Positions 1,984 to 29,858 are shown, counted from the stretch's first letter. The stretch is DNA of 64,000 bases from an uncultured Acidobacteriota bacterium (GCA_963796275.1 CAWCKY010000004.1:32001-96000), one strand, 5' to 3'. Notes: a model not told the origin generated them from the letters alone. Program-made: numbers and translations.

Positions 1984-1984
1984 A

Positions 1985-3049: not shown

Positions 3050-3172
3050 TGCCATCCCTCCCGTCAAAAAGAGTTCATGATCTGGCTCTCAAGTAGATAC
3101 TCTCCTCGAAATACGTCTCAGCACCACCTAGACGTCAGCCGCTCCCGTCACCCTCAAGTTGGGACGATGGGC

Positions 3173-7813: not shown

Positions 7814-7875
7814 CTATTATGTTCCTTACCAAGCTATTCAAAGGTGTTTGCTGGAATGGTCGAGGATATACGAAC

Positions 7876-9492: not shown

Positions 9493-9623
9493 TTCTCCTC
9501 CTCTACCGCATTTCTTTGCTGTTAACAACTAGATGTATTAACGCCTCGATAATGGTTTCTCTAATAGGCTTCGCAATAGGCTCTTGCGCAGAGAGAAGGC
9601 GGACCAAGAGATGGGGTTGGCGA

Positions 9624-11216: not shown

Positions 11217-11412
11217 TGATATCTCCTAAGGTCTCATCCGGCCATAGGCAAGGAGTTCCCAGCCACCGAACCGTTCGGCGCGAATACCAGTGCCGCAGTT
11301 TTGTATAACTGAAGGTTGTGAGAATGAGAGAAAAAAAGACAGATCGATCGCGGTACGATCCCAGGTAGAATCACAATTCAAACGCCAGCCCAAACCCAAG
11401 CATTGGGTTGCT

Positions 11413-14940: not shown

Positions 14941-14950
14941 TCTGCTAGTT

Positions 14951-15739
14951 TTAGACCTGCGCTTCCCGTAGGTTGATGAGGTTTAAGGTTAAACTCATGC
15001 ACGTCAGTCCGGCCTCAGCTTTCTCAAATTCTGAAATGTCGAGTATAGCTACTTGGAAGCCACGTTGTTCCACCAACGCGCGCGTTTGCGGATAACCGGA
15101 GGGAAGCAGCACGATTTTTCCTACAGACAGGGTATTAGCCGCCCATGGCTCCGTGGCAGGCACCTCTATGATCTCTGCCCATTCAAACGGACGAGCATCA
15201 ATCCACGAGCGGTTAAGAAGCACTGTGTTACGGCCCAGGTATGAACACCCTGTTGATAAATGTAAGCACCCATTTACTCTGACAGATCGTACATCGTAAC
15301 CATAGGGCGCCAAGATCATTCGCAACTGTGCAATCCCTTCTGTATTAGTACGACTTGATTCGCCGAGATAGAGGGTGCGGCCGATCCGTATCACATCGCC
15401 GCCTTCCAATGTCGCTGGCGGCTCGAGATATTTCAGAGGGCGGTGCCTCGCCAATACAGGAACTAAGCTATTGATTTCATCTCGCCTCCGCGAAGCCCCC
15501 ATTCGGGCAATGACAGCAAGTTCATCGACCACAACTGCGGTGTCTTCAATGAAAACGGCGTCTGGCAATGCTGGCTCTGGTGGGAGAGAAATTACCTTAA
15601 CTCCATTCTGTTTCAAGAACAGTTCATACGATTGATGTTGTCGAATGGCCTTGGAAATGTCTATCTGGACGCGGTTCAAATAGGTCAATTCACAGTTCCC
15701 GATACTGTGACTGACTTGGCGCGTAAACGCGGTCGGCAT
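14951..15739 (-). CDS. Dimethylargininase (DDAH)/amidinotransferase-superfamily guanidino-modifying enzyme
   Basis: 262 aa; PDAVFIEDTAV, LEGGD, LHLST and C-terminal GLTCMS with the catalytic Cys. Confidence 0.88.
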   Translation of the reverse strand: MPTAFTRQVSHSIGNCELTYLNRVQIDISKAIRQHQSYELFLKQNGVKVISLPPEPALPDAVFIEDTAVVVDELAVIARMGASRRRDEINSLVPVLARHRPLKYLEPPATLEGGDVIRIGRTLYLGESSRTNTEGIAQLRMILAPYGYDVRSVRVNGCLHLSTGCSYLGRNTVLLNRSWIDARPFEWAEIIEVPATEPWAANTLSVGKIVLLPSGYPQTRALVEQRGFQVAILDISEFEKAEAGLTCMSLTLNLINLREAQV

Positions 15740-15847
15740 TTTTCTCCTTCTTCTGTTACTCTCTCTTCGGCTACTTCGGATGACGCAAAACTAACGCTAT
15801 AGTTTAACTTCCCTTCGTTTAAACAATGTTCATACCATATTCAATTG

Positions 15848-17560
15848 TCAGGCTGGGGACAAAATCGGCGGGTTACTATACGTTGCAGATATTTTCTTTT
15901 CTGCTTTCTCTTCCTCTGTAATGAGACGATCTGAGATCAATTGGCCATCCTCAAGCTTAATGAGACGATCAGCTATGTAATAGTAGCGATCATCGTGGCT
16001 GACCACCAACACGGTTTTACCTTTGGATTTCAGCTCTGGCAAAAGTTGTAGATAAAAGACATCCTTGAACTGAGGATCCTGATCTGCAGCCCATTCGTCG
16101 AATATATATATAGGCCGGTCTTCGAGATATGCAGTCAGTAGTGCCAGGCGTTTGCGTTGGCCCTGCGACAACTCAGTGGTCGAAAGCAATCCATTTTTTA
16201 TCTGAACCTTATGGTCAAGTTGAAGCTGGGCTATATATTCGCGAGCCTGTGCATCGAGTCCCGGACGATCAAGCCCATATAGGCCATCAAACAGATAGAA
16301 GTCAGAAAACACGGCAGAGAAATGCTGGCGATAATAATCCCGATTCTGATTGCTTACCGGCTGCCCATCGAAGATTATCTCTCCACTTTCAGGCGCATAA
16401 AGAGCGGAAATCAGTTTAATGAGTGTTGTTTTACCGCTCCCATTACCTCCAGTAATAAAGACTATTTCTCCAGGATTCAATTTCAAATCTATCGGTCCGA
16501 GAGTAAAGTTGCTGTTTTCGCGTTCGCGATGATAAGTGTGAGTGACATTGATAAGGTCTACTTTCTTCCAGGGAAGAGTCGAATTTGCAAGTGGAGGCGC
16601 ATCATTCTCACTTATCTTGGCTGTGAGCAAATTCTCCAATTCACCGAGCTGATCTATTGCGATCTCGGCTTGACTGATTACTGGGTACGTATTAAGCACA
16701 AATTGAAGAGGGTGAATCATATAAAGAATGACGATAACGTATCCAGTGAGCACCTCAGTGGTTGCTCCTTGAAAGTTTGGGAGATTGAAAATTAGCAACC
16801 CAATCACTACAAAAACCAACAACTCTCCCCAATTTTCAGCAATAGCATAATTAGTCGTTGCGGCGATTCGGTCACGGGCAACGGCGGCAGCGGTAGCCTG
16901 TACATTCTGAGAGAAAAATGTTTCCCGGCGCTGGCGATGAAGTTTGAGCTCCTTGCTACCATCGACCAGGGCGTGAAAATGTTTGAGCAATAAAGTCCAA
17001 GAATCACGAGCGAGCATGTAATATTTATCGGCTCTTTGTGCAAGCACAGAGTAACCAAGGCCGCCCAGGGTAAAGATTCCAACTACTGTGAGGAGTAAAA
17101 TCCACGAGAGCCAACCCATATAAACCAGACAACCCAGTACAATCGCTGTGTTTATGCAAAGATTTGGCAGATTAAACAAGGCAGCCACAATTTTCGGAAT
17201 GTCATCGGTCAACGAGGCCATCAACCGGCTGGAGCCAATAGCCTCAAGGTCCCGTAAAGGAGAGGCGAGAATCCCGCGACTTAATTGTATTCGTAAACTG
17301 TACGCTGTCCCTTTGGCGAAGCGCCTGAGAGTAATCTGAAACACTGCCTTGCTGACAGCGAATAATGCACAGGCGGCGAAGAAACTCCACACTGGGGTTG
17401 CGCCAGGGGAGTTGCTTTGTTTCAATGCGCGGCTGGCCAAAGCCAACACAATCGTGTTACTTATCCCGCCCACAATGCCTACCAACATCATAATAACGAT
17501 GAAGCTTTTCGATCGGCTGGTGCTTGTGGAGTGTCGGAGAAAGAATGAAAATAGCTTCAT
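15848..17560 (-). CDS. Cyclic peptide export ABC transporter (SyrD/PvdE/YojI family)
   Basis: N-terminal TM helices; GGNGSGKT, LSQGQRKRLAL, FDEWAADQDP family signature. Confidence 0.95.
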   Translation of the reverse strand: MKLFSFFLRHSTSTSRSKSFIVIMMLVGIVGGISNTIVLALASRALKQSNSPGATPVWSFFAACALFAVSKAVFQITLRRFAKGTAYSLRIQLSRGILASPLRDLEAIGSSRLMASLTDDIPKIVAALFNLPNLCINTAIVLGCLVYMGWLSWILLLTVVGIFTLGGLGYSVLAQRADKYYMLARDSWTLLLKHFHALVDGSKELKLHRQRRETFFSQNVQATAAAVARDRIAATTNYAIAENWGELLVFVVIGLLIFNLPNFQGATTEVLTGYVIVILYMIHPLQFVLNTYPVISQAEIAIDQLGELENLLTAKISENDAPPLANSTLPWKKVDLINVTHTYHRERENSNFTLGPIDLKLNPGEIVFITGGNGSGKTTLIKLISALYAPESGEIIFDGQPVSNQNRDYYRQHFSAVFSDFYLFDGLYGLDRPGLDAQAREYIAQLQLDHKVQIKNGLLSTTELSQGQRKRLALLTAYLEDRPIYIFDEWAADQDPQFKDVFYLQLLPELKSKGKTVLVVSHDDRYYYIADRLIKLEDGQLISDRLITEEEKAEKKISATYSNPPILSPA

Positions 17561-17749
17561 CGATAATAACTCTTGTCAAGTAAAATGAAGAATTTGTATA
17601 AAGCCCGGAAACATGTGGCTCGCAGTCGGGATTACTGCGGTTTCGCAATCATCGCAGTGCATCCGCTGCGAAAGTCCGCACGCGCTCCGTGCGCCGGTTC
17701 TAGGGCTAAACCCTGCTTCGATCGAGGGTTTGATCGTGCCTCTTTTAAT

Positions 17750-17993
17750 GAGGACTGTGCAAATTAAAGTTGATTGTTATTAGTAGTTTCTGGTTGGCTC
17801 CGGGGGAGCCCGATGTTTATAGCTTAGATGATAATGTTCATCGCAAGCTCCAGAGGAGCGACATCTGAACGCCTATATACCGCTCCTCCGGAGCTTGTGA
17901 GGTTTGGATGATCGAGTACTATAAATATTCCGCGCCGCTGGCGCTCGGTACCAAAAACATTGATTCCAATGATCTTTTATTTGCACAGTCCTC
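17750..17993. mobile_element. 244-bp MITE with terminal inverted repeats and 9-bp target duplication, containing REP-like hairpins
   Basis: Ends GAGGACTGTGCAAA / TTTGCACAGTCCTC; TCTTTTAAT at 17741-17749 and 17994-18002; internal GCTCC..GGAGC stems. Confidence 0.85.
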
Positions 17994-18062
17994 TCTTTTA
18001 ATAGGTCATCCGTTGTTTGTTATTCGGATTTTGGTGAGAAAAACGTGTAATTTAACATTACG

Positions 18063-20417
18063 TTAGAATGAATAGGTCTTACTGACATAAGTTGTATCAC
18101 TATAAGGAAACCAGCTAGAAATTAACTCACCAGGCCTTGGGTTGGAGACTAGCTCGTCCAAGGCAGGCAAATCGTAAGAAAGGTCTGTCACCTTTAATTT
18201 GATCGGCAATGACGCTTTGGTAACTAAGACCAAATCCAATCCTGCCTCTGGAAGAGGTAGATATCGTAAGCCCCATTGACCAGCTCCTCCTCCGTTCGCG
18301 GTTTTGCCATTGATTGTGGCGCTTATAACTTCTGCACCATGGTCCAAAAGGATGAAGATTATCGGGGCCTTTCTTGGGGATTTAATATTGAAATGCGAGG
18401 TTTTCACTGTCCCGCTAATGCTCTGACTCACTAAAGATATCTCGGGCACCGCGAGCTCTTTTATTGGAGCTTGAGCGCTTAGAAATGCGGGATAGGTCGA
18501 GGGAATGAAATTATCGAGCGGCCCAAGTTTTACGTGATCAGTTAGGAATCGATTGGTCCAGGCATTTAGTCTATGATCCATAGTTGCCCATATGGCCTTA
18601 CCTGAATCTGCGTTCATGGCATAGAATAGACTGCTCGGTCGCGGATGCTCTCGATCAATACGCGCTGTGAAGATGGCGGCACTAATAAACGCCACGCTCA
18701 AAATCAATGAAATCCATGGCAATAACCAGCGATCCGACATCCTGGTCCGATTCAATGCCTGATCCAAATGCGGAATGAATAACCCCGTAACTAACACCAC
18801 CAATAAAATAATGACCGGAGCCAGTGAGATGCCGAATGCCAATGATATTAGATAAATCATCGGACTCCACAATATGACCCCTGGTAGCGCGCCTGCCAAT
18901 GGAAGAAGCCTATTCTTAAAGAATGCCCCGAATGTATCGCCGATAAACATTCGGCCCCCCAAGGCGACCAAGCTAAACAATAAGGGCCAAACGAACAAAT
19001 AGCTGCCACCCGGTATAAAGATGCTTGTGGCTATCAATGGAAATAACCACCAGAATATTGCCCCCATGGCGAGGTCTAACGTGGATATCTTCTTTTGCCA
19101 GTGGCCATAAAACATGGAGAGAACAGTGAGAACCAAAGCTGCATAACCAATCAAATAATATCCGCTGTTATAAGTATCTCCTTGTGGAAACGCCTTATAG
19201 TCAGGATAGAGCATACCGATTAGCAGCGAAGCAAACGCGACAATAATTGGCGAAATCATCAGCGTCATAAGGAAAATGCCGATTCCTCGCATCAAACCTG
19301 GCCCAGACAGCATCCTTCGCCGAATACCCAGAATCGATAATCCAATATAGAGGGCAGAGACCAGAGCTGCTAAAGGTTTGGCCCAACCGTCAGAGTAATG
19401 GACCAGGCCCCACCCCGGTAGATCGAAATACACCTTGTTGTTATTTGTCGCGGTTTTCGACAGATCCATTGCGCCTAGACGTTTGGAAAGCGCAAGGGCA
19501 TACGCCCCCTGGTGTTGCAAACTGCGTTCGTCAATGTTTTCGAGGCTGTCCAGCATGGTATGGTAATGCGTGTGGCCCGAGATATAGGCGAAATTCAACC
19601 CCGCCCAGCCTGCCCTTTTAAAAACCGAGAAATCTGTGTCGTTTGGTAAAAGCCTATAGATTTCTTGAGAGAGTGAATTAGCAACTGGGTGAGGTGCGGC
19701 CTGCGCCAGTTCATCGATTAGCCAGCCATTTCCATCACTCGTCTCAAACATTATCGCAGGCCCGGAATTGCCGCGTGCCTCAAAGTTTAAAACCACTCCG
19801 ACATTGAAGGCTAACGGATGTTCGGCGACAAAAGCTCTCGCACCAAGCAATCCCGCTTCCTCTCCATCTGTAAACAAAAAGATCACATCATTTTTTAGCG
19901 GCGGACTGTTTCGTAAAGCTCTCAAGGTTTCCAGCATTGCTGCAACCCCGGCTCCATCATCGCTTGCTCCAGGGCTGGACGGAACAGAGTCATAATGGCT
20001 GACCAACACGATCGATTCGCTGTTACCAGTTCCACCTAACATAGCGACGATATTTTCTATCGTAGCAGCCTTAATTAGCCCGCTGCGATCATTACTGGTC
20101 ACCGTGGAATTTTGAATCTGAGGTGATAGCCCAAGACTGGAGAGCTGTTGATATATGTAGTCTCGCACGGCACGATGCTCGGCTGAACCCTGTGGATGAG
20201 GGCGCTTGGCGATCACTCGTAAATGCGCCATTGCCCTTGCCGAGGAAAACTCCCCAATCGGTGCATTGTCTGGCACTGCGTGCGGCGGATCGAGATGTCC
20301 AATTGCTAATCTCCCAATTAGCAAGATCACTGAAATTGATAGGAGAATAGCATAAGAGCTTGTAGCACTCAGTGCGACAACTTGCTCCGACTCTTTCGAT
20401 GTAAATGTATCTGCCAC
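18063..20417 (-). CDS. Membrane-anchored M28-family metallopeptidase with multi-TM region
   Basis: SHYDS, GASDDGAG, TDGEEAGLLG, NFEARG, DTDFSVF, YHT motifs followed by several TM helices. Confidence 0.92.
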   Translation of the reverse strand: MADTFTSKESEQVVALSATSSYAILLSISVILLIGRLAIGHLDPPHAVPDNAPIGEFSSARAMAHLRVIAKRPHPQGSAEHRAVRDYIYQQLSSLGLSPQIQNSTVTSNDRSGLIKAATIENIVAMLGGTGNSESIVLVSHYDSVPSSPGASDDGAGVAAMLETLRALRNSPPLKNDVIFLFTDGEEAGLLGARAFVAEHPLAFNVGVVLNFEARGNSGPAIMFETSDGNGWLIDELAQAAPHPVANSLSQEIYRLLPNDTDFSVFKRAGWAGLNFAYISGHTHYHTMLDSLENIDERSLQHQGAYALALSKRLGAMDLSKTATNNNKVYFDLPGWGLVHYSDGWAKPLAALVSALYIGLSILGIRRRMLSGPGLMRGIGIFLMTLMISPIIVAFASLLIGMLYPDYKAFPQGDTYNSGYYLIGYAALVLTVLSMFYGHWQKKISTLDLAMGAIFWWLFPLIATSIFIPGGSYLFVWPLLFSLVALGGRMFIGDTFGAFFKNRLLPLAGALPGVILWSPMIYLISLAFGISLAPVIILLVVLVTGLFIPHLDQALNRTRMSDRWLLPWISLILSVAFISAAIFTARIDREHPRPSSLFYAMNADSGKAIWATMDHRLNAWTNRFLTDHVKLGPLDNFIPSTYPAFLSAQAPIKELAVPEISLVSQSISGTVKTSHFNIKSPRKAPIIFILLDHGAEVISATINGKTANGGGAGQWGLRYLPLPEAGLDLVLVTKASLPIKLKVTDLSYDLPALDELVSNPRPGELISSWFPYSDTTYVSKTYSF

Positions 20418-20596
20418 TGCAACACTCTTACGAAAGTTATCTCTTCAAGCTGAACTCACAGACCTGAGGTATATCACCTGGATTCTTGAATGGCGATTTG
20501 TTGAAGGAACAGGTTTATGTTTGTGTAGTCGCTACATATCGTTTTTGATTTTACGCCACAAATTTGGTATCAGTTCTCAAGGCAGATACGTCAGAT

Positions 20597-21169
20597 TCAT
20601 GTCCCTCTTAAGAGCCTAGATGTGATATCCAATTTGTCGCTAAGCTTGGTTTCATTTCCATTTGGGTCAGGAACTATTGTTACTACGGTGCCTTCATCAA
20701 GCTGAATTGCTACTGACCTCTGCAGTAAAGTTACGGAGATGACCAACCGCTTCTTATTGTCGTTTTGACATATAGCCCCCTGAACACCGGCTAGAGGACC
20801 TGTCTCTACAAGAACTACCGTTCCATCAGGGAGATAGTTCCATGGCTCTCGTAAGAAATGGCTCCGTGCTAAAAGCTGTAAGGCATCGATCTCTTCTACA
20901 GCTATTTCCGCAGGCTTCCCGCCAAACCCAACTATTCTGGTGACTCCCTTAGTTGCAATTACTTTGCCCATGGCCGAAGGACTGAGGTAGCAGAAAACAT
21001 AGGTAGAGAAAAGTGGCAACTCTATCTCTACTGTACGGTCTGACCATTTTCGCTTCTGCCGGTATGTCGGTGTAAAACACTCATAGCCTTTTTGTCCGAG
21101 CAGATAACTTATTTTCTTTTCATTCCTTGGCATAGTCTGTATAGCAAACCATGACTGCACAGTATTCAT
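20597..21169 (-). CDS. Specialised NusG paralog (UpxY/RfaH/LoaP-like transcription antiterminator)
   Basis: NGN domain WFAIQTMPRNEKK, RKWSDR...PLFSTYVF; KOW motif ETGPLAGVQG; first gene of a long operon. Confidence 0.92.
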   Translation of the reverse strand: MNTVQSWFAIQTMPRNEKKISYLLGQKGYECFTPTYRQKRKWSDRTVEIELPLFSTYVFCYLSPSAMGKVIATKGVTRIVGFGGKPAEIAVEEIDALQLLARSHFLREPWNYLPDGTVVLVETGPLAGVQGAICQNDNKKRLVISVTLLQRSVAIQLDEGTVVTIVPDPNGNETKLSDKLDITSRLLRGT

Positions 21170-21236
21170 ATCAAGCTATCCCCTGAACTGGCACCACGCA
21201 TTTTTACGTCGAGCTGAATACCAGTGGATTTTATGA

Positions 21237-21275
21237 CAGGCTACTGCCATCCTGAGTCACATCGTAGAACTCAGG
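21237..21275 (-). promoter_or_regulatory. JUMPstart/ops-like element: hairpin followed by GGCAGTAGCCTG
   Basis: Minus strand CCTGAGT-tctacgatgtg-ACTCAGG AT GGCAGTAGCCTG; one mismatch from the ops consensus GGCGGTAGnnTG; lies between the promoter and the nusG paralog. Confidence 0.65.
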
Positions 21276-21349
21276 CAAATAAAAGCGAACACAGATATTG
21301 CCCTTGACTCGTTATTTCCGTGAAGCACTACTTGCCGCAAGTATTTATG

Positions 21350-21365
21350 GCAATCGAGGTGCCAA
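21350..21365 (-). promoter_or_regulatory. Sigma54 (RpoN) -24/-12 promoter
   Basis: Minus strand TTGGCAC-CTCGA-TTGC is an exact match to TGGCAC-N5-TTGC, oriented into the NRPS operon. Confidence 0.8.
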
Positions 21366-21486
21366 AGCTCACCTCCGCATGGCGAGAGCTCGAGCGAAGA
21401 GCGAAATTGCTTGACCCGGTTGAAGATGATGGTGATGAAGGATGGCGATAGAAGAATATCCCGTGGCATCCGGCCGAGCCGCGCAA

Positions 21487-21595
21487 TATCACCAATGATA
21501 ACGCCTGGCGGAAAATTCAACCGGGCGTAAGGTGCTAAGGTCTTGGTTGTTCAACGGCTTCGGCACGCTGCCGGACTGCTGTATCAATGCTGATA
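21487..21595. promoter_or_regulatory. Candidate enhancer (UAS): two TATCA-N4-TGATA palindromes
   Basis: TATCAccaaTGATA 21487-21500 and TATCAatgcTGATA 21582-21595, about 120 and 215 bp upstream of the -24 element. Confidence 0.6.
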
Positions 21596-21650
21596 TAATT
21601 ACTTGAGCGATGATCATCATCTGAGCTTGCTGGAGTGGTAGGTGGCGTGC

Positions 21651-23606
21651 TCACTTATTGAGCGCCGCTTTTGGTTTCAGCTTGCGGACCAGATGCTCGA
21701 CTTCGGCCCTTAGCTCCAGTTCGTTGATCAGACGATGGAGGTTGGGCGGTTTGATGCCGAGCAAGCCAGCAGCCTCGCTCAGGTTGCCCGTAGCCTGGTT
21801 GATAGCTTCACGGATCACACGTTTTTTAGCCTCTTCGGCCGCTTGTCTGGCAACTAGATTGATGTCGAGGCCGGGCGCGCCTGTGAGTGGAGCCAGGGCA
21901 CGAATCTCTTCGGGCAGATCTGCCGGCGCGATGAATTCAGTCGTCTCTGTTGATCCTGCATCGTGGTGTAGCACCGCATAGTAGATGGCGCTCTCTAACT
22001 CGCGCACATTGCCCGGCCAATGGTAGTTTTTCAAACAGGCTAAGGTTTCGGGGGCAATCAGCGTCACGGGCGGGTGGCGTTTCGCGCCATACTTCCTGGC
22101 GAAGTGCCGGGCAAGCAGTTCAATATCCTCACGATGATCCCGCAGCGGGGGCAAAGGGATAGGAAAGACCTTGAGCCTGTAATAAAGGTCTTCGCGGAAG
22201 GTACCAGCCTTGACGGCGGCCTCGAGATCACGATTGGTCGCGATGAGCATCCTGACGTCCACCCGGATCGAGCGCGTGCCGCCAAGTCGCTCGAATTCAG
22301 GTTTGACCTCAGAGTCCACAGGCAGCACCCGAAGCAGCTTGGCCTGCAGCGACAAGGGCATCTCGCCGATCTCATCGAGGAAGACAGTGCCGCCGTTCGC
22401 CGCTTCCAGCTTCCCTTTCTTTACTTGTATGGCCGCCCCGGTAAAGGCGCCCGGTTCGTGGCCGAAGAGTTCGTTCTCCAGCAAGGTCTCCGGGATCGCC
22501 GCGCAGTTGATCGCCATAAACGGCTGACCGGCGCGCCGGCTGCGGTCATGGACGGCGCGGGCCACCAACTCCTTACCCGTGCCACTCTCGCCAAGGATCA
22601 AGACGGTGGCGTCAGAAGAGGCCGCCCTGGCAATCTTCTCATGCACCTCAGTAATCTTCTGACTCTCACCGATGATACGGTGCTGGGACTGCAGTTCGGC
22701 GCCGAGCCGCCGGGTCTCCTGCTCTAGCCACTCAGCGCGCCAGGCTTTTTCTAACGCATTGGCGGACAGGTCGGCGATGGCCGTCACCAGGTCTATCTGA
22801 TGATCGTCGAAGCGACCGTGTTGATCATCGACGGTCAGATAAATGACGCCAAGCACCTGTCCATCAGTGATCAGCGGGACGACGAGCAACGACTGCGGCG
22901 GATCGCCATCGGTGAAGAGCATCGAACGACGTTCATACCGCGCCCGTTGAACGGGAAGGCGTTGAACTTGAATAGTGGAGTCCATCGCCGGCGGCCGAGC
23001 CTTGACCGCTTCTTCGGTCAACTCTTCAGCTTCGTCTACGAAACGGAGAAGAACTCCTCGGTCGGCGGGAACGATCTCAAAGATAGAGTCGAGCAATTGC
23101 CGCGCGAGCGCACGGGGCTTGCGGATGGCATTGATCGCCCGGCTGATCTTCAGCAACTCGTTCAGATCGCGGGCAAGTGAAGCAGCCGGCGGCAACGCGG
23201 CTGCTACTTTCGCCGGATCCAGGTAGAGCACGTCTTCCAGGCGGCGCAGGATGGTTGCGCCGATGGCAGTCGTGTCGTCACTGAACTGCACGAAGCCCGC
23301 AGGTTGTGGAACTTCGCCCTCGCCGAGCAAAAAGATGAAGACGGAATCAGCAACGGTGAGTAGATCGAAATGCGCTAACGTACGCTTCTTCACCGGCTCG
23401 TTATTGATAAACGTGCCGTTGGTGCTCAAGTCTTCGATCTCGAATTGATTCCCGACTCTGCGGATCACACAATGCTGCCGTGACACCAGATCACCGCCGA
23501 GGCATAGTTGATTGGACGGCGCGCGCCCGACAAAACATTCGTTACTATCGAGAATCACGGCCCTGCCCTTCAACAAACCGGCCACCTCTATCAGCTTAGG
23601 AGACAT
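21651..23606 (-). CDS. FHA-GAF-sigma54 enhancer-binding transcriptional activator
   Basis: FHA (VGR..VSRQH..STNGT), [34 protein letters not shown]-terminal Fis-type HTH; ATG 23606 with GGAGG RBS. Confidence 0.95.
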
Positions 23607-23750
23607 CTTTTCCTCCAAAAACAAAACTGGTCTCTGACTGTGAAATTCCGTAAGCCCTGTGGGCCCTGGCACGATCGAGCCTGTCGATTGGCACATAGCG
23701 CATGACGGGCTGCGCTGAAAAACCGGGCTCGTCTGAATTCGATTTCCAAT

Positions 23751-24554
23751 CTACTTATGAATTAAATCAACGTTCATCATGAGGATCCCGGCCCAGAGGG
23801 AGACGTTCATCTTGACTTTGGCCGGACTGGGTGCTCCCGGTGGCAGCCCCACGTCACGCCGGATATGATCGCGCTCGGTCGGAGTTTGGGCCTGACCAAA
23901 TTTTCGGCTCTGACTCTCGCGAGCGGCGGTGTCCGCCCAAGCCAAAAGCTGTTTCCATTGCGCGGCGGATGGACGCCATGGACAGGCCTCCTGGTTATCA
24001 CGACAAAATGCGGTCAGCTGCTCCCCGGTCAGGATATCCGGCAACCGCTCGCGCGTAACAAATAGATAGAAACGTTCGATCGCCACGGCCTGGTTGAAGT
24101 GAAACCAACGAAACTCCGGATCCTCCTCGCGGCTCGAAGGAACTTCTCTGGGCACATGCGCCTTAACGAAATTATGGCCGCCCTGCAAGCGGGCGTCTGG
24201 GAAGAGCATCTTCGCCGGGCCGTCATTCTCGACATGAAAGACATAGAGATAACCGGTGATATTCGACTCGATCATAAAACGCACGGCGTCTCCCTCACGA
24301 AACGCGCGCCTGGCATTGACGCGCACTGCCGCTTCGCGCGGCCCTCGCTTTAAGAGCGTAAATCCGAGACCAATGGGCCCTGCGGGTCGAGATTGAGCTT
24401 GAGTCTTGGACTTTGAGAGATGGGTCACCACCTTGTCTCGCGTGCTCACGAAGTTGCGTACAACCTCGTCATCGTTCTCTCTTTGCGCCAGCGCTGCCGG
24501 CGCCAAACAGGTCAGAAGTATGATGGCCGCAACGCCGAAATAGCTTGATTTCAT
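23751..24554 (-). CDS. Secreted DUF4384-like protein
   Basis: Signal peptide ending ALA; FREGDAVRFMIESNITGYLYVF...MLFP pattern; start overlaps the kinase stop. Confidence 0.75.
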   Translation of the reverse strand: MKSSYFGVAAIILLTCLAPAALAQRENDDEVVRNFVSTRDKVVTHLSKSKTQAQSRPAGPIGLGFTLLKRGPREAAVRVNARRAFREGDAVRFMIESNITGYLYVFHVENDGPAKMLFPDARLQGGHNFVKAHVPREVPSSREEDPEFRWFHFNQAVAIERFYLFVTRERLPDILTGEQLTAFCRDNQEACPWRPSAAQWKQLLAWADTAARESQSRKFGQAQTPTERDHIRRDVGLPPGAPSPAKVKMNVSLWAGILMMNVDLIHK

Positions 24555-26338
24555 CTTTGATCTCTTCTTTCTCTACCCCCAAGACCGAGATTGACCTCAA
24601 ATAGAAACGGCGCGCCGCTCGCGCGTTCCCCCGAGATGGCGACGATAGATTGAGAGCCTTGCGTATCAATGCGCACGTGCTGTCCAAACCTTCTCCGTAA
24701 CTCGGCCAATTCGGCCTCCTCCTCCGCTGTCAAGGCATGATCAGCGGCCTCGGCCAGAAAACGTGGCTGGGCTAATGGCTCGGGCGTGAAGATGATGGTA
24801 TAGGTTCGGAAGCTTGCGCCACGTGCGACTTCGATCCACTTATCCACTCGTGACGGGAAGCCATAGTCTGTTCCGGCAGCGAGCAGGTTGCCCTTCACTC
24901 CCCATGCTGAATTCGGTTGTGCGGTCAAAAACGTGGTGCGCGCCGCTCGCTCGCCCGGCGCGACGATATAGAGATAGCCGCGCCAACTCGGCACAAAATG
25001 AAACTTCAGCCATCGGCCTCTGACAACCGGATTGGCGCCCGCGACGCGCTCCGCTCTACCAGTCTCCGGCTCCACCTCCAAGTAGTATCGCATGGCCTCA
25101 ACTAATGGCCCGGATCCCGGCGTCGAACTGTCGGGGCGCGTGATGATGGTCTCTCCAGCCGGCGGATTAGCCACGCTCGAACCTGGCAGACGACTTAAGC
25201 GCCAATACGCCAGTGCGGCAATCACCGGAAGCAAAAGACACAAAGCAATACACGCTGTCCGGGCGCCGCCCAAACGAGACCAGGCGGCAACGGCAACCTG
25301 CTCATCAACGCCGGGCGCTGCGGATGGCAGAGCAATCCGCCCGGCATTAGTGGCTTCCAAGCCCGATGATTTCGTTGCATCGCGAGCGGCGGTCGCTGGC
25401 TCTTCGCGCAGGGAAACGCTCTCCATCCACGAACCGTCAATAGATGTTGCGGTGTCGTGATAATCCGGAGCGTGCGGCTGGGCTGCCGCGCGCAATGCCC
25501 GGCGCATTTCGGTCGCGGTCGCCGGACGCTCATCGGGAAGATGAGCCAGGGCGCGCATCAGCACAACGGCGACGGCTTCAGGTACTTGCCCATTCAGTTC
25601 ATTGGCTGGTCGCAATGGATCTGGCCGCCGCTCTAGCGCTGCCGTTGTGCGCGTCAGCGCATCCGCTGGGAGACGCCCCGTGATCAATCGATAGACGGTC
25701 GCGGCCAGCGAATAAAGATCACTACGCGGATCGGTTCCAGTGCCACGAATCTGCTCCAGCGGCGCATAATTGCGCGTATAACCAGGCAGGCTCTCGTCGA
25801 TCTCCTCGTCCATCTGGGACACCTCGGTCGCCGTCCCTTTAGCCAGCCCGAAGTCGAGCAAAATGACATCTCCTTGCTCGGTCAATTTTAAGTTCTGCGG
25901 CTTGATATCTCGATGGACAACCGGCGGCTGATGACCGTGCAAGTATTCGAGCGCATCGAGCAGTTGATCAGCCCAGCGCAGAACCTGGTTCACGGCGAAG
26001 GCTTCACCGGTCTCCTGTATCTTTTCAGCCAGCAGTTCTTCCAGGTCTTTTCCCAGAAACAACTGCATGACAAGATACTGCGCTTCCCCTTCTGTGAAAT
26101 GATCCGTAACGTGCGGAAATACACGGTGGCGGAGCCGATGCAGCAACCTTGCTTCGCGTGTAAAAGCCTGGCGGAACTTCGCCTGAGTGAAGTAAGCCTC
26201 TTTCACCGCAACCCGGCTGCGAAACAGCCGGTCCTCGGCAAGATAAACGCTCCCCATCCCGCCCTGTTTGAGCAGAGACAAGATGCGATAGCGATTCTGC
26301 AGCACAGTGTCAGCTGCTAGTTTGCCAGATCCCATCAT
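24551..26338 (-). CDS. Membrane Hanks-type Ser/Thr kinase with extracytoplasmic DUF4384-like domain
   Basis: GGMGSVY, VAVKE, HRDIKPQN, DFG, YAPLEQ, DLYSL; one TM helix; C-terminal FHFVPSWRGYLYIV. Confidence 0.93.
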   Translation of the reverse strand: MMGSGKLAADTVLQNRYRILSLLKQGGMGSVYLAEDRLFRSRVAVKEAYFTQAKFRQAFTREARLLHRLRHRVFPHVTDHFTEGEAQYLVMQLFLGKDLEELLAEKIQETGEAFAVNQVLRWADQLLDALEYLHGHQPPVVHRDIKPQNLKLTEQGDVILLDFGLAKGTATEVSQMDEEIDESLPGYTRNYAPLEQIRGTGTDPRSDLYSLAATVYRLITGRLPADALTRTTAALERRPDPLRPANELNGQVPEAVAVVLMRALAHLPDERPATATEMRRALRAAAQPHAPDYHDTATSIDGSWMESVSLREEPATAARDATKSSGLEATNAGRIALPSAAPGVDEQVAVAAWSRLGGARTACIALCLLLPVIAALAYWRLSRLPGSSVANPPAGETIITRPDSSTPGSGPLVEAMRYYLEVEPETGRAERVAGANPVVRGRWLKFHFVPSWRGYLYIVAPGERAARTTFLTAQPNSAWGVKGNLLAAGTDYGFPSRVDKWIEVARGASFRTYTIIFTPEPLAQPRFLAEAADHALTAEEEAELAELRRRFGQHVRIDTQGSQSIVAISGERASGAPFLFEVNLGLGGRERRDQR

Positions 26339-26381
26339 TATGCTGGCGCGCGTGGCCAGATCGCCACGCCGTCCTCAGTCC

Positions 26382-29300
26382 TTATCGTTTGCCTTCCAGG
26401 TTCGCCCACTCCCCCGCCTGGATAAAGCTCGCCCAGTAAAATGGATGCTGGCGAGCTTTGCGTTTCAGCATCTCGAGTTGCACGCGCCGCAGCCCATCGC
26501 TTCGCCCCTCGCCGTGTTGCAATGCCTTGTAGTACTCGATCATCAATTCCCGCGTACCCAGATCAGAGACCGACCACAGACTCATCACCTGCGTCTCCGA
26601 TCCGGCCAGCGCCAGCGCACGCCGTAGTCCAAAGACCCCTTCGCCATTCTTCACCTCGCCCACGCCCGTGTCGCAAGCCGAGAGCACGACCAACTTCGTC
26701 CCCCATAAATCCAGCCCCGCAGTTTCTAGCGCCATCAGGACGCCATCGTCTCCGTGATCGGCGCTGCCCCGGCGTCGATTGACACCAGCTAGCGCCAGTC
26801 CTGAACGCAGCAGTGGGTTCTCAACCGGCTGATCAGAGGACGACACAGACCGGACCGTCACCGCGCCCATATCGCGCGCGCCAACCAGCTCAAGCTTTTG
26901 ATCCCGGAGGAAAAATCCATGCGTCGCCACGTGGAGAATGCTCGGACCGTGGAGTTCCTTGAGCGCCGCCTCGGTAGCCTGCTCTCTCGTCAACACTGTT
27001 GCCTGGGGCAGAATCGCTTTGAGCGTCTGCGCCTCGCCCGCCGTCCCGACCAATGGCGGGAAAAAGACGCCAGACAGGTTGAGTGCGCCGGCGGATTGCG
27101 GAGACCCGGGCGGTAGCCCGATATCTCGGCCACTTGACGCGGCCGCTCTCTCACCGTAAGCGGGATTGGCCACAATCACTACCCTCTGCTCGCCCGGCCG
27201 GTCAACAGACGTCCGCAGCAGTTCACGACCGCTCGTCAGATAGCTGATCGAATAGCGTTCGACCAGGTAGTGACCTTGCCGGTCAACGAGGGCGGCGAAT
27301 GGAACAAGATTGAGCAAACCGTCAGGCGCGATCAGCAGACGCCGGATATCCCCCAACCCTGACTGCGCTAATCCCAACACGGGCCGCATCACCTGCTCAT
27401 CCACCACGCGCGCCAGTCGCTTGACGTCCCTCCGGCGCGGATTGCGCAGCGCCCGGCGCCAGGCAGTCATCGCCCGATCAATCGGCGCGGCCTCGCCCAG
27501 GTCGATCCACCTCGCCTCGCCTCGCGCAGCCAGCCAATAGGCGAGGTAGCGCGGCGGCATCTTGTTCTTATTGTTCCGCAGGTCCCTCGGCGTGTAGACG
27601 GCAAATTCGACCAGGGCGCTGTCAGAGGGGAGAGCTTCCTGGACGGCAGCCAGCGTGACCGGTTGAACTTGCGTGCGAAACTCCGGGCGGCGGGCACTCA
27701 AGGCCGATTCCAATTCCTCAACTTTGTCTTCGCGCAGTTTGAGTCGCGCCCGGTAGGTCTCAGGCTTATCCGTTCCCAACTCTCCGAGGGTGAGCGCAGC
27801 CAACTGTGAGCGCGCCTCGGCGAGTTGATCAAAGAGCGTCTGGTCTTCAGGTGCCGCGCGACGTCGCGCTGCGGCGATCGTGTCGGCCATCACATCGAGT
27901 CCACGCCCTTTCCGGCGGAGCAGAGTCGTGAAAGCCAGTTCGAGCGCCTGAGGATATTGCGGGAGGGCTTGACTATGAAGCGAGAGAGTGAAATTGGTTT
28001 GTTCCGAGAAGAGGGCGAGGTAAGCGAGTATCTGGCGTTCAGAGCCGGTGGCGAGATTGAGCGTGAGGTTGCGTTCACCGAGGGAGTTGGCGCGAGACAG
28101 AACTTTGACGGCTTGAGCGAAATCGCCTTTTGCCGTATAAAGCGCGGCCAGATTGTCAAGAAACCCCACGACATCGGGATGTTCTGGCCCCATCGCATTC
28201 TCCAGGATGGCCAGCGCCCGTTGGAACAACGCCTCAGCTTTCGCATACTCACCCTTCTCTCGATAGAGAACTGCAAGTCTATCCATAGAATGAGCGACAT
28301 CGGGGTGCTCAGGCCCTAGCGCTTTCATCTGTATGGACATCGCTCGTTGAAATAGTGTCTCCGCCTTCACATAGTCCCCCCGGTCGCGATAGAGGATGGC
28401 AAGGTTGCTGAGGGGATTCGCAACCCTTGGATCGTCTGGCCCCAAGGCTTTCTCCCGAATGTCTACTGTCCGTCGAAGTAGTCGCTCTGCCTGCTCAAAG
28501 TCGCCGCTGTCGAAGTAGAATTGCGCCATATTGTTGAGGGTAGAGGCAATATCGAGGTGATCCGGCCCCAGCGTTTTCTCACTGATCGCCAGTGCGCGCT
28601 GATAGAGTTCTTCAGCCTTCACGTAGTCTCCCTTGCTGCTGTAGAGATAGGCGATGCTGTGGAGAATTAGAGCGACCCTGGGGTGTTCTGGTCCCAGAGC
28701 CTTCTCCGAAATGGCCAGCGCGCGTAGGCCCAGCTGTTCCGCTTTCGTGTAGGCGCCTCTCCCGCGGTACAAGAGGGTGAGGTTCATGAGAGATTGCGCG
28801 ACATCGGGATGACCCGGACCTAGGACCTTCTCCCGAATGGCGAGCGCTCGTTGATAGAGAGACTCGGCCTCCGCATATTCGCCCATACGGGCATAGACAT
28901 TGGCAAGATTGTTGAGAGAGTTCGCGACATTGGAATGTTGCGGCCCCAGCGCTTTCTCAAGGATGGCCAGCGGGCGTTGAAACAGTTGTTTTGCTTTTAG
29001 GTATTCACCTCTATGGAGAGAGATGACCGCAAGGTTGTTGAGAGTTTTAGCGACATCGGGATGTTCCGGCCCCAAGACCTTCTCCCGGATGGCGAGCGCT
29101 CGCTCGTAGAGTGGCTCGGCCTTCGCATATTCGCCCTTATTCCAGTAGAGGTTGCCGAGGACGTTGAGAACCTCAGCCGCATCGCGATGTTCCAGCCCTA
29201 ATAGCCTCTCACGAATCCCCCGCGAACGTTCAATTAACGGAAGCGCTTCTCCATGCCTGCCTGCGCCTATCAGTTTGAGCCCCTCTTGAAGCAGCTTGCG

Positions 29301-29858
29301 CGCCTCGTGCAAAGCGCGGTCATTCTCATCCGCGGCGCGCAGCTCCTCGATCCAAATCTCATAGTCTCCTGCCGGCGCCTGCTTCTGCCCTGGCCGTACT
29401 GTCAGCCCATAGGCACCTGACGATTCGGCTACATGCGACAACAATTCCTGTCCCTGGCTCCTGCCTTCCATGTCGAACTCCGCGATCTGCTCGCCGCCTG
29501 GTCCTGACAGTCGCGCCACAACGTCAATGCCTTGCTGCTCGATGATCACCTTCAGATATTGACCGGCGCTCAGCCTGATCTGATAAGTTTGGCTATGATC
29601 ACCCGCCAATTCGCGTTTAATGGGTTGGCCAGGCTCAAGCAGAAGCGCCTCTTTCTCATTATCGGCTTTGCTGCTGGCATCACGCGGCGCTTGAGTTGGC
29701 TGTTGGCCAGGTCTCGCGAGTATGTACCCCAAAGTGTTCACCGAGAGAGCTATGGCCAATGAGCAGAAGAACAGGCAAAGGGATTTAGCCAAGCTTTGAG
29801 ATGTGAACTGCTGGTTAGGTCCGTTTAAAGCTGAGTCGGGTCGGCTTCGATCAGTCAT
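26382..29858 (-). CDS. TPR-repeat CHAT (caspase-like) protease
   Basis: About ten 42-aa TPR repeats (LGPEHPDVA); CHAT motifs APDGLLNLVPF, ATHGF (His), VLSACDTG (Cys), HPFYWASF; N-terminal hydrophobic segment. Start uncertain: ORF is open to 29963. Confidence 0.93.
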   Translation of the reverse strand: MTDRSRPDSALNGPNQQFTSQSLAKSLCLFFCSLAIALSVNTLGYILARPGQQPTQAPRDASSKADNEKEALLLEPGQPIKRELAGDHSQTYQIRLSAGQYLKVIIEQQGIDVVARLSGPGGEQIAEFDMEGRSQGQELLSHVAESSGAYGLTVRPGQKQAPAGDYEIWIEELRAADENDRALHEARKLLQEGLKLIGAGRHGEALPLIERSRGIRERLLGLEHRDAAEVLNVLGNLYWNKGEYAKAEPLYERALAIREKVLGPEHPDVAKTLNNLAVISLHRGEYLKAKQLFQRPLAILEKALGPQHSNVANSLNNLANVYARMGEYAEAESLYQRALAIREKVLGPGHPDVAQSLMNLTLLYRGRGAYTKAEQLGLRALAISEKALGPEHPRVALILHSIAYLYSSKGDYVKAEELYQRALAISEKTLGPDHLDIASTLNNMAQFYFDSGDFEQAERLLRRTVDIREKALGPDDPRVANPLSNLAILYRDRGDYVKAETLFQRAMSIQMKALGPEHPDVAHSMDRLAVLYREKGEYAKAEALFQRALAILENAMGPEHPDVVGFLDNLAALYTAKGDFAQAVKVLSRANSLGERNLTLNLATGSERQILAYLALFSEQTNFTLSLHSQALPQYPQALELAFTTLLRRKGRGLDVMADTIAAARRRAAPEDQTLFDQLAEARSQLAALTLGELGTDKPETYRARLKLREDKVEELESALSARRPEFRTQVQPVTLAAVQEALPSDSALVEFAVYTPRDLRNNKNKMPPRYLAYWLAARGEARWIDLGEAAPIDRAMTAWRRALRNPRRRDVKRLARVVDEQVMRPVLGLAQSGLGDIRRLLIAPDGLLNLVPFAALVDRQGHYLVERYSISYLTSGRELLRTSVDRPGEQRVVIVANPAYGERAAASSGRDIGLPPGSPQSAGALNLSGVFFPPLVGTAGEAQTLKAILPQATVLTREQATEAALKELHGPSILHVATHGFFLRDQKLELVGARDMGAVTVRSVSSSDQPVENPLLRSGLALAGVNRRRGSADHGDDGVLMALETAGLDLWGTKLVVLSACDTGVGEVKNGEGVFGLRRALALAGSETQVMSLWSVSDLGTRELMIEYYKALQHGEGRSDGLRRVQLEMLKRKARQHPFYWASFIQAGEWANLEGKR

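Follow-up and report, generated by a model that had tools for sequence, protein, structure and literature searches.

In the genome of an uncultured soil Acidobacteriota bacterium, four adjoining genes probably form one conserved signalling operon with an FHA-GAF sigma54 activator as output, and this operon would control a lipopeptide cluster through a portable enhancer-promoter cassette. The duplicated region of about 450 bp that brackets the cluster is new here. Comparisons of sequences from several genomes make the wiring from the activator via paired dyads and a sigma54 promoter to the cluster well supported and quite likely, and the whole path from the signalling operon to the cluster is probably the best explanation of the locus. 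Unless indicated otherwise, coordinates refer to the window, i.e., the whole stretch of 64,000 nt that was analysed.

The four genes of the signalling module

An earlier note on this DNA had described four co-oriented genes, an intact His/Cys pair in the CHAT domain and a GAFTGA loop in the activator, and Pfam searches and translations bear out this description. The TPR-CHAT protease (26382..29858, minus strand, like the other three) matches TPR_12 (8.8e-144) and CHAT (PF12770, 2.1e-78), and the His (VATHGFF) and Cys (LSACDTG) residues of the dyad can be read in the translation after the TPR array. The ATG at 29858 is the likely start within an open frame that extends to 29963. The protein contains a single N-terminal transmembrane helix (aa 22-48) with balanced flanking charge, and a PPC-like domain is weakly matched (E 0.014). 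Because the topology is not readable from the flanking charge, an extracytoplasmic CHAT domain is suggested purely by analogy.

The Hanks-type Ser/Thr kinase (24551..26338, minus strand; Pkinase, PF00069, 8.7e-33) shows the catalytic motifs HRD (HRDIKPQN) and DFG in its translation, and it has a transmembrane helix (aa 355-382) and a DUF4384-type ectodomain. The DUF4384-like domain that the earlier note placed outside scores 16 bits (E 0.013) in the window, below the 27 bits above which DUF4384 membership (Pfam PF14326) was accepted; yet DUF4384 is the sole family match in all five related kinase ectodomains, two of which pass the cut-off (25.5, 29.7, 24.0 and 29.3 bits for the ectodomains of the kinase relatives). 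An hhalign comparison of the ectodomain with the secreted DUF4384 protein gave a probability of 10% and an E-value of 0.003. The gene for that secreted protein (23751..24554, minus strand; DUF4384 4.6e-12, 46.3 bits; signal peptide) overlaps with its start the stop of the kinase gene by 4 nt.

The fourth gene (21651..23606, minus strand) encodes an FHA-GAF-AAA+-HTH_8 sigma54 activator, identified by Pfam (FHA, PF00498, 2.6e-16; GAF, 1.6e-11; Sigma54_activat, PF00158, 9.8e-68; HTH_8, 3.4e-5) and by its translation, in which the GAFTGA loop and the Walker A motif GESGTGKE are present. The hallmarks of the FHA fold are conserved Gly-Arg, Ser-x-x-His and Asn-Gly loops, and the translation contains VGRAPS, SRQH and TNGT. 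The likely start is M31 at 23606, which is preceded by GGAGG in a frame open to 23696, and homologues align from aa 25-33. With its Fis-type HTH (HTH_8) and the candidate upstream activating dyads described below, the protein has the features of a bEBP. One copy of rpoN (Sigma54_DBD 198 bits, 548-aa open frame) is present in the genome of 9.46 Mb.

The enhancer-promoter-leader cassette

Two perfect palindromes, an exact sigma54 promoter and an ops-like site had been noticed ahead of the cluster, and all of them were located in this region. The distal dyad TATCAGCATTGATA (21582..21595, unstranded) is centred at about -250 relative to the predicted start site, and the proximal dyad TATCATTGGTGATA (21487..21500, unstranded), 95 bp away, at about -155. 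Between the dyads and the promoter, the alignment of five cassette copies revealed a third conserved block, ATCATCTTCAACCGGGTCAAGCAATTTCGC (21401..21430, minus strand). The sigma54-type promoter TGGCACCTCGATTGC (TGGCAC-N5-TTGC; 21350..21364, minus strand) predicts a start site near 21338, and the leader motif GTGACTCAGGATGGCAGTAGCCTG (21237..21260, minus strand) contains the ops-like dodecamer GGCAGTAGCCTG (21237..21248). Dyads, third block and promoter span about 300 bp, with a distance of about 130 bp from dyad to promoter. The dyads lie further upstream than the 80-150 bp given in PMC7910581.

Only 0.01 perfect TATCA-N4-TGATA dyads are expected in the window from shuffles, compared to the two found. 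The whole genome contains 16 distinct exact dyads, of which two cassettes account for four. Among the 218 sites with at most one mismatch, just three pairs are clustered: in the cassette described above (cassette A), in a second cassette (cassette B) and in the promoter of an activator paralog.

The exact sigma54 word occurs once in the window (0.17 expected) and 27 times in the genome. As the latter number is close to the composition-based estimate of about 20, the word has to be weighed by its position and conservation and not by the match itself. A motif that is no commoner than estimated would also fit the alternative that it is not a working promoter, that the cluster is transcribed by read-through from the signalling operon or by a housekeeping promoter that escaped recognition, and that the dyads are repressor operators. 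Two further observations point in the same direction: the -12 element is TTGC in the window's genome only and degenerates to TTCC or TTTC in the relatives, which have TGGCGC at -24, and module and cluster are co-oriented in the window's genome, where no minus-strand terminator was found between them. However, the -24 GG and the -12 C are invariant in five of five cassette copies and occur at a fixed distance from the dyads, a 13-bp indel in cassette B still yields TGGCAC-N5-TTGC with exact spacing, and the search for a sigma70-like promoter in 20900-21800 retrieved none (shuffles 1.0). In addition, read-through is not general, because the cassette of one relative (G001) is divergent from the module and cassette B follows a TE gene. 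A non-functional motif is thus very improbable, and transcription from the sigma54 promoter is the preferred reading.

The lipopeptide cluster and cassette B

The cluster (1..20417 in the window, minus strand, annotated with Pfam) contains genes for an M28 peptidase, an ABC transporter, a dimethylargininase-like protein, a FAAL-T-C starter, two CmlA-type hydroxylases, NRPS modules and TauD, and it continues for about 14.4 kb past the window start, up to a TE-ending NRPS, cassette B and an MbtH-like gene. The FAAL-type starter with T and C domains, the NRPS modules, the terminal TE and MbtH, all seen with Pfam, characterise it as a lipopeptide NRPS cluster, and this natural-product pathway is probably silent.

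Cassette B, the second copy of the enhancer-promoter-leader region, lies 36 kb downstream and hence outside the window, and is 81-85% identical to cassette A across about 450 bp. It is located, together with the MbtH-like gene, at G000:C4:16362-17540 (L003:2362-3540; G000 is the window's genome). Because it follows the TE-ending NRPS, ahead of the MbtH-like gene, the two copies bracket the cluster.

The G+C content is 58-61% in the module, 47-54% in the cluster and 53-55% in the seven contigs, and the lower value of the cluster indicates that it is probably a later arrival. The G+C step coincides with the stop codon of the activator gene, as would be expected if a low-G+C cluster that carried its own cassettes had been inserted beside an unrelated signalling operon, the dyads being read by another activator, for example a paralog in the same genome (C4:250576).

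Recognition helix and distribution of the cassette

The recognition helix of the three activator orthologues is KPPNLHR, and one residue of this helix co-varies with the candidate dyads. Four of five paralogs with the helix HPNNLHR have two or three WATCA-N4-TGATW sites at most 165 bp upstream of their own gene, and none of the 15 paralogs in which this helix position is Y or H has such sites there. The paralog C4:250576 reads HPNNLHR, so that it shares the N-LHR helix with the window's activator. Its own gene is preceded by three dyads, and it may likewise recognise those of the cassette. Its properties, and the high number of sigma54 activators in the genome (28 scored matches), would be in accordance with an insertion.

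The third block was used as a search pattern across 401 genomes of the class and was retrieved from four of them (G000, G001, G264 and, with two mismatches, G393), and from one metagenome contig. The site in G393 has neither dyads nor module genes and was rejected as a cassette. The real cassettes, in three of the 401 genomes and the metagenome contig, each adjoin an orthologous module. In G001, dyads at -666 and -574 and TGGCACGCCGCTTCC at -439 are followed by a NusG paralog and an MbtH-like gene. This cassette is divergent from a TPR gene, the end of which overlaps the start of the contig with the CHAT, kinase, DUF4384 and activator genes (99.2% identity, 123/124, and 98.3%, 229/233), and the linkage of cassette and module in G001 depends on joining two contigs (C907 and C944) through a TPR repeat that contains a 126-nt indel. 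In L085, two tandem cassettes follow an activator with 82% identity, and in L165 a cassette follows CHAT, kinase, DUF4384 and activator genes with identities of 77.5%, 71.6%, 79.9% and 81.8%, respectively.

In two genomes the cargo comprises a NusG paralog together with NRPS or MbtH, and in the L085/L165 lineage it consists of secreted DUF4394 proteins. The module is thus not dedicated to the cluster, as the same module and cassette would drive DUF4394 cargo in that lineage. Wherever the cassette was found, it adjoins the orthologous activator, and this pairing spans three lineages, two genera, three arrangements and two kinds of cargo. Conversely, an orthologue of the activator is absent from 39 relatives without the cassette, the best match being 51% or less. 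Both results argue against an insertion of the cluster with cassettes for a different activator, which is therefore considered quite unlikely, and for co-travel of cassette and activator.

The NusG paralog and the leader motif

The gene following cassette A (20597..21169, minus strand; Pfam NusG 1.8e-16) encodes a specialised NusG paralog of the UpxY family (NCBIfam). It passes the cut-off for UpxY (NF033644, 103 bits, cut-off 100) and fails those for RfaH (TIGR01955, 74.6 bits, cut-off 144.5) and LoaP (NF033641, 51.6 bits, cut-off 125). Ops-like cores resembling CTCAGAATGGCGGCAGCCTGCC are common to eight leaders in three genomes with any promoter type, and the motif GGC(A/G)G(T/C)AGCCTG agrees with the ops dodecamer of E. 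coli at 10 of 12 positions. It also precedes mbtH, without a NusG-paralog gene after it. The leader motif is thus a candidate for an ops-type recruitment element of the NusG paralog. The combination of dyads and sigma54 motif was present at two of the 15 NusG-paralog loci examined, i.e., in G000 and at G001:C907 only.

The proposed input half

The path from CHAT via the kinase to FHA is a proposal, which draws on conservation of the operon in two genera, on TPR-CHAT/DUF4384 precedents and on a single complex prediction that passed. An operon of the kinase(DUF4384)-TPR-CHAT-FHA-activator type is also present in a second genus (L031). The predicted complex of the kinase ectodomain and the mature DUF4384 protein had a median score of 0.72 (runs 0.75, 0.72 and 0.00), and the best of three controls was 0.00; the runs share at least 9% of their contacts and the pLDDT of the partner is at least 68. 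In a reference set, 58 of 80 solved complexes but just 2 of 110 mismatched pairs attained this score, counts that are only rough because own alignments with three and two rows were used. With the caveat on the score that the two proteins share a fold, the prediction supports binding of the secreted DUF4384 protein by the kinase ectodomain.

It could be argued that activator and cassette operate as proposed and that the kinase senses alone, while the TPR-CHAT protease is not the signal input and acts on the cargo or on an unrelated target. Its roles could then include maturation, self-protection or turnover of secreted products. Indeed, TPR-CHAT genes adjoin all five NusG-paralog-plus-MbtH loci of the genus, with any regulator type, and a peptidase C25 occupies the place of TPR-CHAT in L042. 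However, CHAT paralogs usually adjoin a sigma switch (an ECF sigma factor with a zf-HC2 anti-sigma factor, or a kinase), also without a nearby cluster, the CHAT tree tracks switch type and not cargo, and the orthologous CHAT accompanies DUF4394 cargo in L165. Moreover, the known TPR-CHAT proteins DdvA and Csx29 gate sigma factors (PMC11506125; bioRxiv 10.1101/2022.08.17.504292). A function confined to the cargo or an unrelated target is thus unlikely, and a role of the protease in signal input is favoured.

Proposed mechanism

The secreted DUF4384 protein would dock on the DUF4384 ectodomain of the kinase. Upon an outside cue, the membrane-anchored TPR-CHAT protease would cut the secreted protein or the ectodomain, and autophosphorylation of the kinase would follow. 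The phosphothreonine would be read by the FHA domain, which, together with GAF, would release the AAA+ core, so that the activator, bound to the two dyads, could open the sigma54 promoter that follows after about 130 bp. Dyads, third block and promoter would constitute a portable cassette of about 300 bp, copy A serving the operon of NusG paralog, peptidase, transporter and NRPS, and copy B the MbtH-like gene. Produced from copy A, the NusG paralog would be recruited via the ops-like sites in both leaders and keep RNA polymerase moving along the long operon.

Sequence and comparison back the domain content, the motifs, the cassette duplication, the co-travel with the activator and rpoN. The downstream half of the cascade that had been envisaged (activator, dyads, sigma54, NusG antitermination, cluster) thus has strong comparative support, to which the helix co-variation also contributes. 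The wiring of the module to the cluster would not be exclusive, as the cargo elsewhere is DUF4394 and the G+C content of the cluster is lower.

A more general view is possible, though tentative: membrane TPR-CHAT proteases might be an interchangeable sensory input to three alternative-sigma switches (ECF sigma with zf-HC2; kinase with ECF sigma; kinase with DUF4384 and an FHA-sigma54 activator), with DUF4384 proteins as substrates. A periplasmic DUF4384 partner would be cut off the kinase ectodomain, whereupon the kinase fires, and these substrates would parallel the DUF4384 group of Csx30. The cassette of about 300 bp would be a movable unit that is duplicated and thereby adds further cargo to the regulon, up to entire lipopeptide clusters that depend on a NusG paralog.

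Comparison with known systems

A limited literature search for work on how Acidobacteria regulate their biosynthetic clusters yielded nothing relevant. Such clusters are hard to activate, and the locus offers a small but complete testable switch that comprises a single activator with two dyads, a -24/-12 promoter and a NusG paralog with its leader site. The comparisons also indicate how the wiring would have originated, i.e., by copying of a portable enhancer-promoter cassette ahead of new cargo.

FHA-domain enhancer-binding proteins of Myxococcus xanthus were reportedly described by Jelsbak, Givskov and Kaiser in 2005, and are said to have an FHA domain fused to a sigma54 activator, implying Ser/Thr-kinase input. 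In contrast to these, the kinase, its DUF4384 partner and TPR-CHAT share an operon with the activator here, and a likely target promoter adjoins it. Sigma54 and the AAA+ activator Nla28 also act at natural-product promoters of M. xanthus, where the activator binds tandem half-sites ahead of the -24/-12 promoters of NRPS/PKS loci, and HsfA and MXAN4899 are cited in the same context (PMC7910581). Most of those promoters lie within genes, and the activators, which regulate development globally, are unlinked, whereas the locus in Acidobacteriota has intergenic promoters, a cassette at both cluster ends and an adjoining activator with FHA and GAF. Because of this precedent, the statement that no described BGC is controlled in this way does not hold for sigma54 and activator control, and narrows to the input through CHAT, kinase and FHA and to a cassette adjacent to the cluster.

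The specialised NusG paralogs RfaH (with ops), UpxY, LoaP and TaA have recruitment sites in leaders and share with the present case that the paralog heads a very long biosynthetic operon and that a short conserved leader element comes first (PMC7819879). The present case differs in that the protein passes the UpxY cut-off alone and that the motif is also found before mbtH, with no paralog gene.

DdvA of the DdvA-DdvS system of M. xanthus is a transmembrane anti-sigma factor with a periplasmic TPR-CHAT, which resembles the present protease as a membrane-anchored TPR-CHAT with His-Cys dyad and in its proposed place as the sensor, possibly cleaving itself, that feeds an alternative sigma switch (PMC11506125). 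In DdvA, TPR-CHAT is fused to the anti-sigma factor and controls an ECF sigma factor and a defence island, whereas the present TPR-CHAT stands alone as a protein and would act through a kinase, an FHA activator and sigma54. CHAT paralogs in the window's genome adjoin separate pairs of ECF sigma and zf-HC2. In type III-E craspase, TPR-CHAT Csx29 cuts Csx30, which holds RpoE (an ECF sigma factor); one group of Csx30 has a C-terminal DUF4384, and cleavage alters the activity of the sigma factor (bioRxiv 10.1101/2022.08.17.504292). Craspase is cytoplasmic and RNA-triggered, whereas the present locus has no CRISPR genes, its DUF4384 proteins are predicted to be secreted or extracytoplasmic, and the output is sigma54. 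TPR-CHAT proteases have so far been studied in DdvA and craspase, and the present comparisons suggest that they are widespread companions of alternative-sigma switches.

The signalling module and its regulatory region

The FHA activator, the paired dyads and the sigma54 promoter probably constitute a real regulatory unit that is wired to the lipopeptide cluster at both of its ends. Pfam searches and translations confirmed the four minus-strand genes of the module: a TPR-CHAT protein with its His-Cys dyad (26382-29858), a Hanks-type kinase that has the HRD and DFG motifs and a single membrane helix, residues 355-382 (24551-26338), a DUF4384 protein that starts with a signal peptide (23751-24554) and whose start overlaps the kinase stop, and an FHA-GAF-AAA+-HTH_8 activator containing GAFTGA (open reading frame 21651-23696). 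Besides these domains, the TPR-CHAT protein has one N-terminal membrane helix and a stretch that weakly resembles PPC (E 0.014). The activator start was placed at 23606, since the alignment with homologues begins around residues 25-33 and M31 is preceded by GGAGG. The source genome (G000; 9.46 Mb in 7 contigs) has one rpoN.

The 481 bp that separate the activator from the NusG paralog hold the following elements: the distal dyad TATCAGCATTGATA (21582-21595), the proximal dyad TATCATTGGTGATA (21487-21500), the exact TGGCAC-N5-TTGC promoter TGGCACCTCGATTGC (21350-21364, minus strand) and the ops-like site GGCAGTAGCCTG (21237-21248). Two dyads are present in the window vs 0.01 in window shuffles, and one promoter word vs 0.17. 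Across the genome, the exact dyad occurs at 16 distinct places, and the 27 occurrences of the promoter word are near the composition-based estimate of about 20. No sigma70-type consensus was found in 20900-21800. Two further candidates were discarded: a third exact copy of the 14-mer TATCATTGGTGATA was taken as chance, as it falls within a distant CHAT-like open reading frame (G000:C4:439749) and has no partner site, and the conserved block at 21401-21430 fits the IHF consensus too poorly to be read as an IHF site.

A second copy of the cassette at the far end of the cluster

According to Pfam, the downstream genes encode the NusG paralog, an M28 peptidase, an ABC transporter, a dimethylargininase-like protein and a FAAL-T-C starter, along with two CmlA-type hydroxylases, TauD enzymes and NRPS modules. 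A genome-wide motif scan revealed a second copy of the cassette (two dyads, the conserved block and the promoter) outside the window, on the same strand and 36 kb downstream (copy B, G000:C4:17278-17508), positioned after a thioesterase-ending NRPS gene and before an MbtH-like gene. Its two dyads have a spacing of 95 bp, and about 122 bp further comes an exact promoter. The two copies are 81-85% identical across about 450 bp. This alignment begins shortly ahead of the distal dyad, takes in the ops-like leader and ends shortly ahead of the start codon, and the TGGCAC-N5-TTGC word is retained in copy B in spite of a 13-bp indel at the promoter. Clustered dyad pairs occur only three times among the 218 sites in the genome with at most one mismatch, namely in these two copies and in the promoter of one paralogous activator. 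The duplicated enhancer-promoter-leader region as a whole extends over G000:C4:17096-17540 (L003:3096-3540); the MbtH-like protein behind it has 196 residues with a long C-terminal extension, and beyond its gene the reading frames appear broken and lack Pfam matches.

The cluster has a G+C content of 47-54% vs 58-61% for the module. A sharp step is seen at the activator stop codon (window 21650-22000), from about 0.48 on the cluster side to 0.585-0.61 on the module side.

The cassette accompanies the activator in relatives

Among 41 relatives, an activator orthologue was found only in the same-genus genome G001 (74% identity; next best 51%), where the four module genes occur in the same order with identities of 62, 64, 69 and 74%. 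Nothing resembling the cassette lies downstream of that activator. A 3.4-kb contig of the same genome, C907, starts with a TPR gene pointing away, followed by the dyads TATCACCATTGATA and TATCACCAGAGATA, 92 bp apart, by TGGCACGCCGCTTCC 135 bp past them, by a leader with GGCGGCAGCCTG and, as cargo, by genes for a NusG paralog (67% identity) and an MbtH-like protein. Where the end of this TPR gene overlaps with the beginning of the module contig, the nucleotide identities are 99.2% (123/124) and 98.3% (229/233), one extra 126-nt TPR unit apart. Probably, these are two parts of one gene split by the assembler, in which case G001 would have the cassette and the module as divergent neighbours.

A scan of the genomes of 185,579 species yielded one further activator orthologue (L085, 82% identical), taken as belonging to a Blastocatellia MAG. 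There, two cassettes stand in tandem behind the activator; both have a dyad spacing of 95 bp and the word TGGCGC-N5-TTTC, and each precedes one secreted DUF4394-CBM protein that is read as driven by it. Downstream of these cargo genes (L085 10120-11808) lie a caspase-domain (Peptidase_C14) protein and an M48 peptidase. A metagenome scan found a sole contig with the conserved block, L165, on which the module (identities of 77.5% for CHAT, 71.6% for the kinase, 79.9% for DUF4384 and 81.8% for the activator) is followed by a cassette and a DUF4394 gene. When 401 genomes of the class were scanned with the block as pattern, it was found in G000, G001 and G264. G264 has two copies spaced as in L085, and therefore G264, L085 and L165 were counted as one lineage, in another genus. 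A match with two mismatches in G393 was set aside, as neither dyads nor module genes are present there. The synteny and motif search that had been proposed as a check places the putative cassette beside an orthologous activator in L085 and L165 and probably also in G001.

An alignment of five cassette copies shows four conserved islands: each of the two dyads, the block ATCATCTTCAACCGGGTCAAGCA(A/G)TTT and the promoter word TGGC..-N5-TT.C, which ends in an exact TTGC in G000 only. The module is apparently older than its present cargo, given the lower G+C content of the cluster and the presence of other genes under the module elsewhere. It should be noted that the unpublished genomes G004 and G205 are counted in the tallies over 41 relatives and over 301 and 401 genomes, and that no claim is based on either.

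The recognition helix of the activator orthologues reads KPPNLHR. HPNNLHR is found in 5 of 20 paralogous FHA-GAF activators of the family, and in four of these five the gene is preceded, at no more than 165 bp, by two or three WATCA-N4-TGATW sites, vs none of the 15 paralogs with Y or H before LHR. The dyad may thus be tied to the N-LHR type of helix, which is a lead and not a statistic, as the genomes are kin. One paralogous activator is preceded by three tandem sites with a spacing of about 20 bp, 68-107 bp upstream (L034, G000:C4:250470-250525), an array that looks like autoregulation.

Kinase ectodomain and secreted DUF4384 protein

The description of the kinase ectodomain as DUF4384-like stands in part: the window copy, at 16 bits, remains below the family cut-off, but DUF4384 is the sole family match in all five related ectodomains and exceeds the cut-off in two. 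A BLASTP comparison of the kinase with the DUF4384 protein gave nothing significant, and hhalign gave a weak match. The predicted complex of the ectodomain with the mature DUF4384 protein reached a median score of 0.72 (runs 0.75, 0.72 and 0.00; best of three controls 0.00), a mark that 58 of 80 solved complexes attain, as do 2 of 110 mismatched pairs; these counts apply roughly here, as our own shallow alignments were used. The runs share at least 9% of contacts with a partner pLDDT of at least 68, and in the model residues 37-59 of the secreted protein contact the ectodomain piece at its residues 105-111. The modelling supports a putative binding of the DUF4384 protein by the kinase ectodomain. 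An AlphaFold2 model of the DUF4384 protein itself (mean pLDDT 39.9, 3-row alignment) was too low for use. Its last 35 or so residues (RDVGLPPGAPSP..NVDLIHK, window 23754-23900), outside the Pfam domain, are almost unchanged in three orthologues and could be a docking or cleavage segment.

The proposed TPR-CHAT input half

The source genome encodes at least 12 further close TPR-CHAT paralogs. A Pfam-detectable ECF sigma factor or zf-HC2 anti-sigma factor adjoins CHAT in 4 of 12 regions examined (L072, L073, L079 and L082) and a kinase in two (L074 and L075). L075 (G000:C6:1722500-1742400) contains, in this order, four tandem TPR-CHAT genes, a gene for a 278-residue protein without Pfam match, and a kinase that is 40% identical to the window kinase over its full length, DUF4384-type ectodomain included. 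In G001, a TPR-CHAT gene adjoins four of the six NusG-paralog loci, all four being those with an MbtH-like gene, and the switch differs: CHAT, ECF sigma, zf-HC2 anti-sigma and NusG paralog on C820 (L067) and C649 (L068); ECF sigma, a kinase with PD40 repeats and CHAT, pointing away from the NusG paralog, on C180 (L065); and the sigma54 module on C907. At L067, L068 and L065, the CHAT-sigma set immediately precedes a cluster with NusG paralog, MbtH and FAAL-NRPS, and L067 has a second NusG paralog (13278-13835). No CHAT gene was found within the fetched stretches at the other two G001 loci or at the NusG-paralog loci of other genera.

In a tree of 16 CHAT sequences, grouping follows the type of switch and not the cargo. 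The CHATs of the sigma54 modules (window, L165 and L024) form one clade (100/100), and a single clade of cluster-linked CHATs was rejected, as the ECF-type CHATs of G001 group with L072 of the source genome (99/97). Another genus has an operon of kinase (DUF4384, 29.3 bits), TPR-CHAT and FHA activator (L031). At the related locus L042 (G020:C18), a gingipain-type peptidase C25 (5874-8462), of the same protease clan as CHAT, takes the place of TPR-CHAT between kinase and FHA activator; a penicillin amidase comes first in both loci.

The signal would pass from CHAT to the DUF4384 protein, from there to the kinase and finally to the FHA domain. This order is the most economical reading, and is offered tentatively, its likelihood being put at slightly less than even.

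NusG paralog, leader and known systems

The NusG paralog scores above the UpxY-family cut-off (103 vs 100 bits) and below those of RfaH and LoaP. A search of 301 genomes of the class gave relatives of it in 11, six of these relatives being copies in G001. A core like CTCAGAATGGCGGCAGCCTGCC is present in eight leaders of three genomes, irrespective of the kind of promoter, and it likewise precedes mbtH in copy B. At L058, L059, L061 and L049 (G001 and G136), it lies 60-390 bp upstream of NusG paralogs at several unrelated clusters, and G136 has two such cores 112 bp apart. Of the 12 positions of the E. coli ops dodecamer, the leader core matches 10. Terminator-like sites in 1300-21250 number 16 vs 18.2 in shuffles, a scan that gives no case for antitermination. 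FHA activators are reportedly known in M. xanthus.

Antibiotic operons with NusG paralogs, LoaP and TaA, are described in PMC7819879. For the input half, PMC11506125 presents a periplasmic TPR-CHAT as the sensing domain of the anti-sigma factor DdvA, and bioRxiv 10.1101/2022.08.17.504292 describes Csx30, a substrate of the TPR-CHAT protein Csx29 that controls an ECF sigma factor, one Csx30 group ending in DUF4384. A literature search turned up nothing relevant on the regulation of biosynthetic clusters in Blastocatellia. The earlier note's statement that no biosynthetic cluster is known to be controlled in this way has to be withdrawn in its general form: sigma54/activator control of NRPS/PKS genes in M. 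xanthus is in print (PMC7910581), and such control is therefore not new as such. What is new here is the input module, the portable and duplicated cassette, the combination with a NusG paralog, and the phylum.
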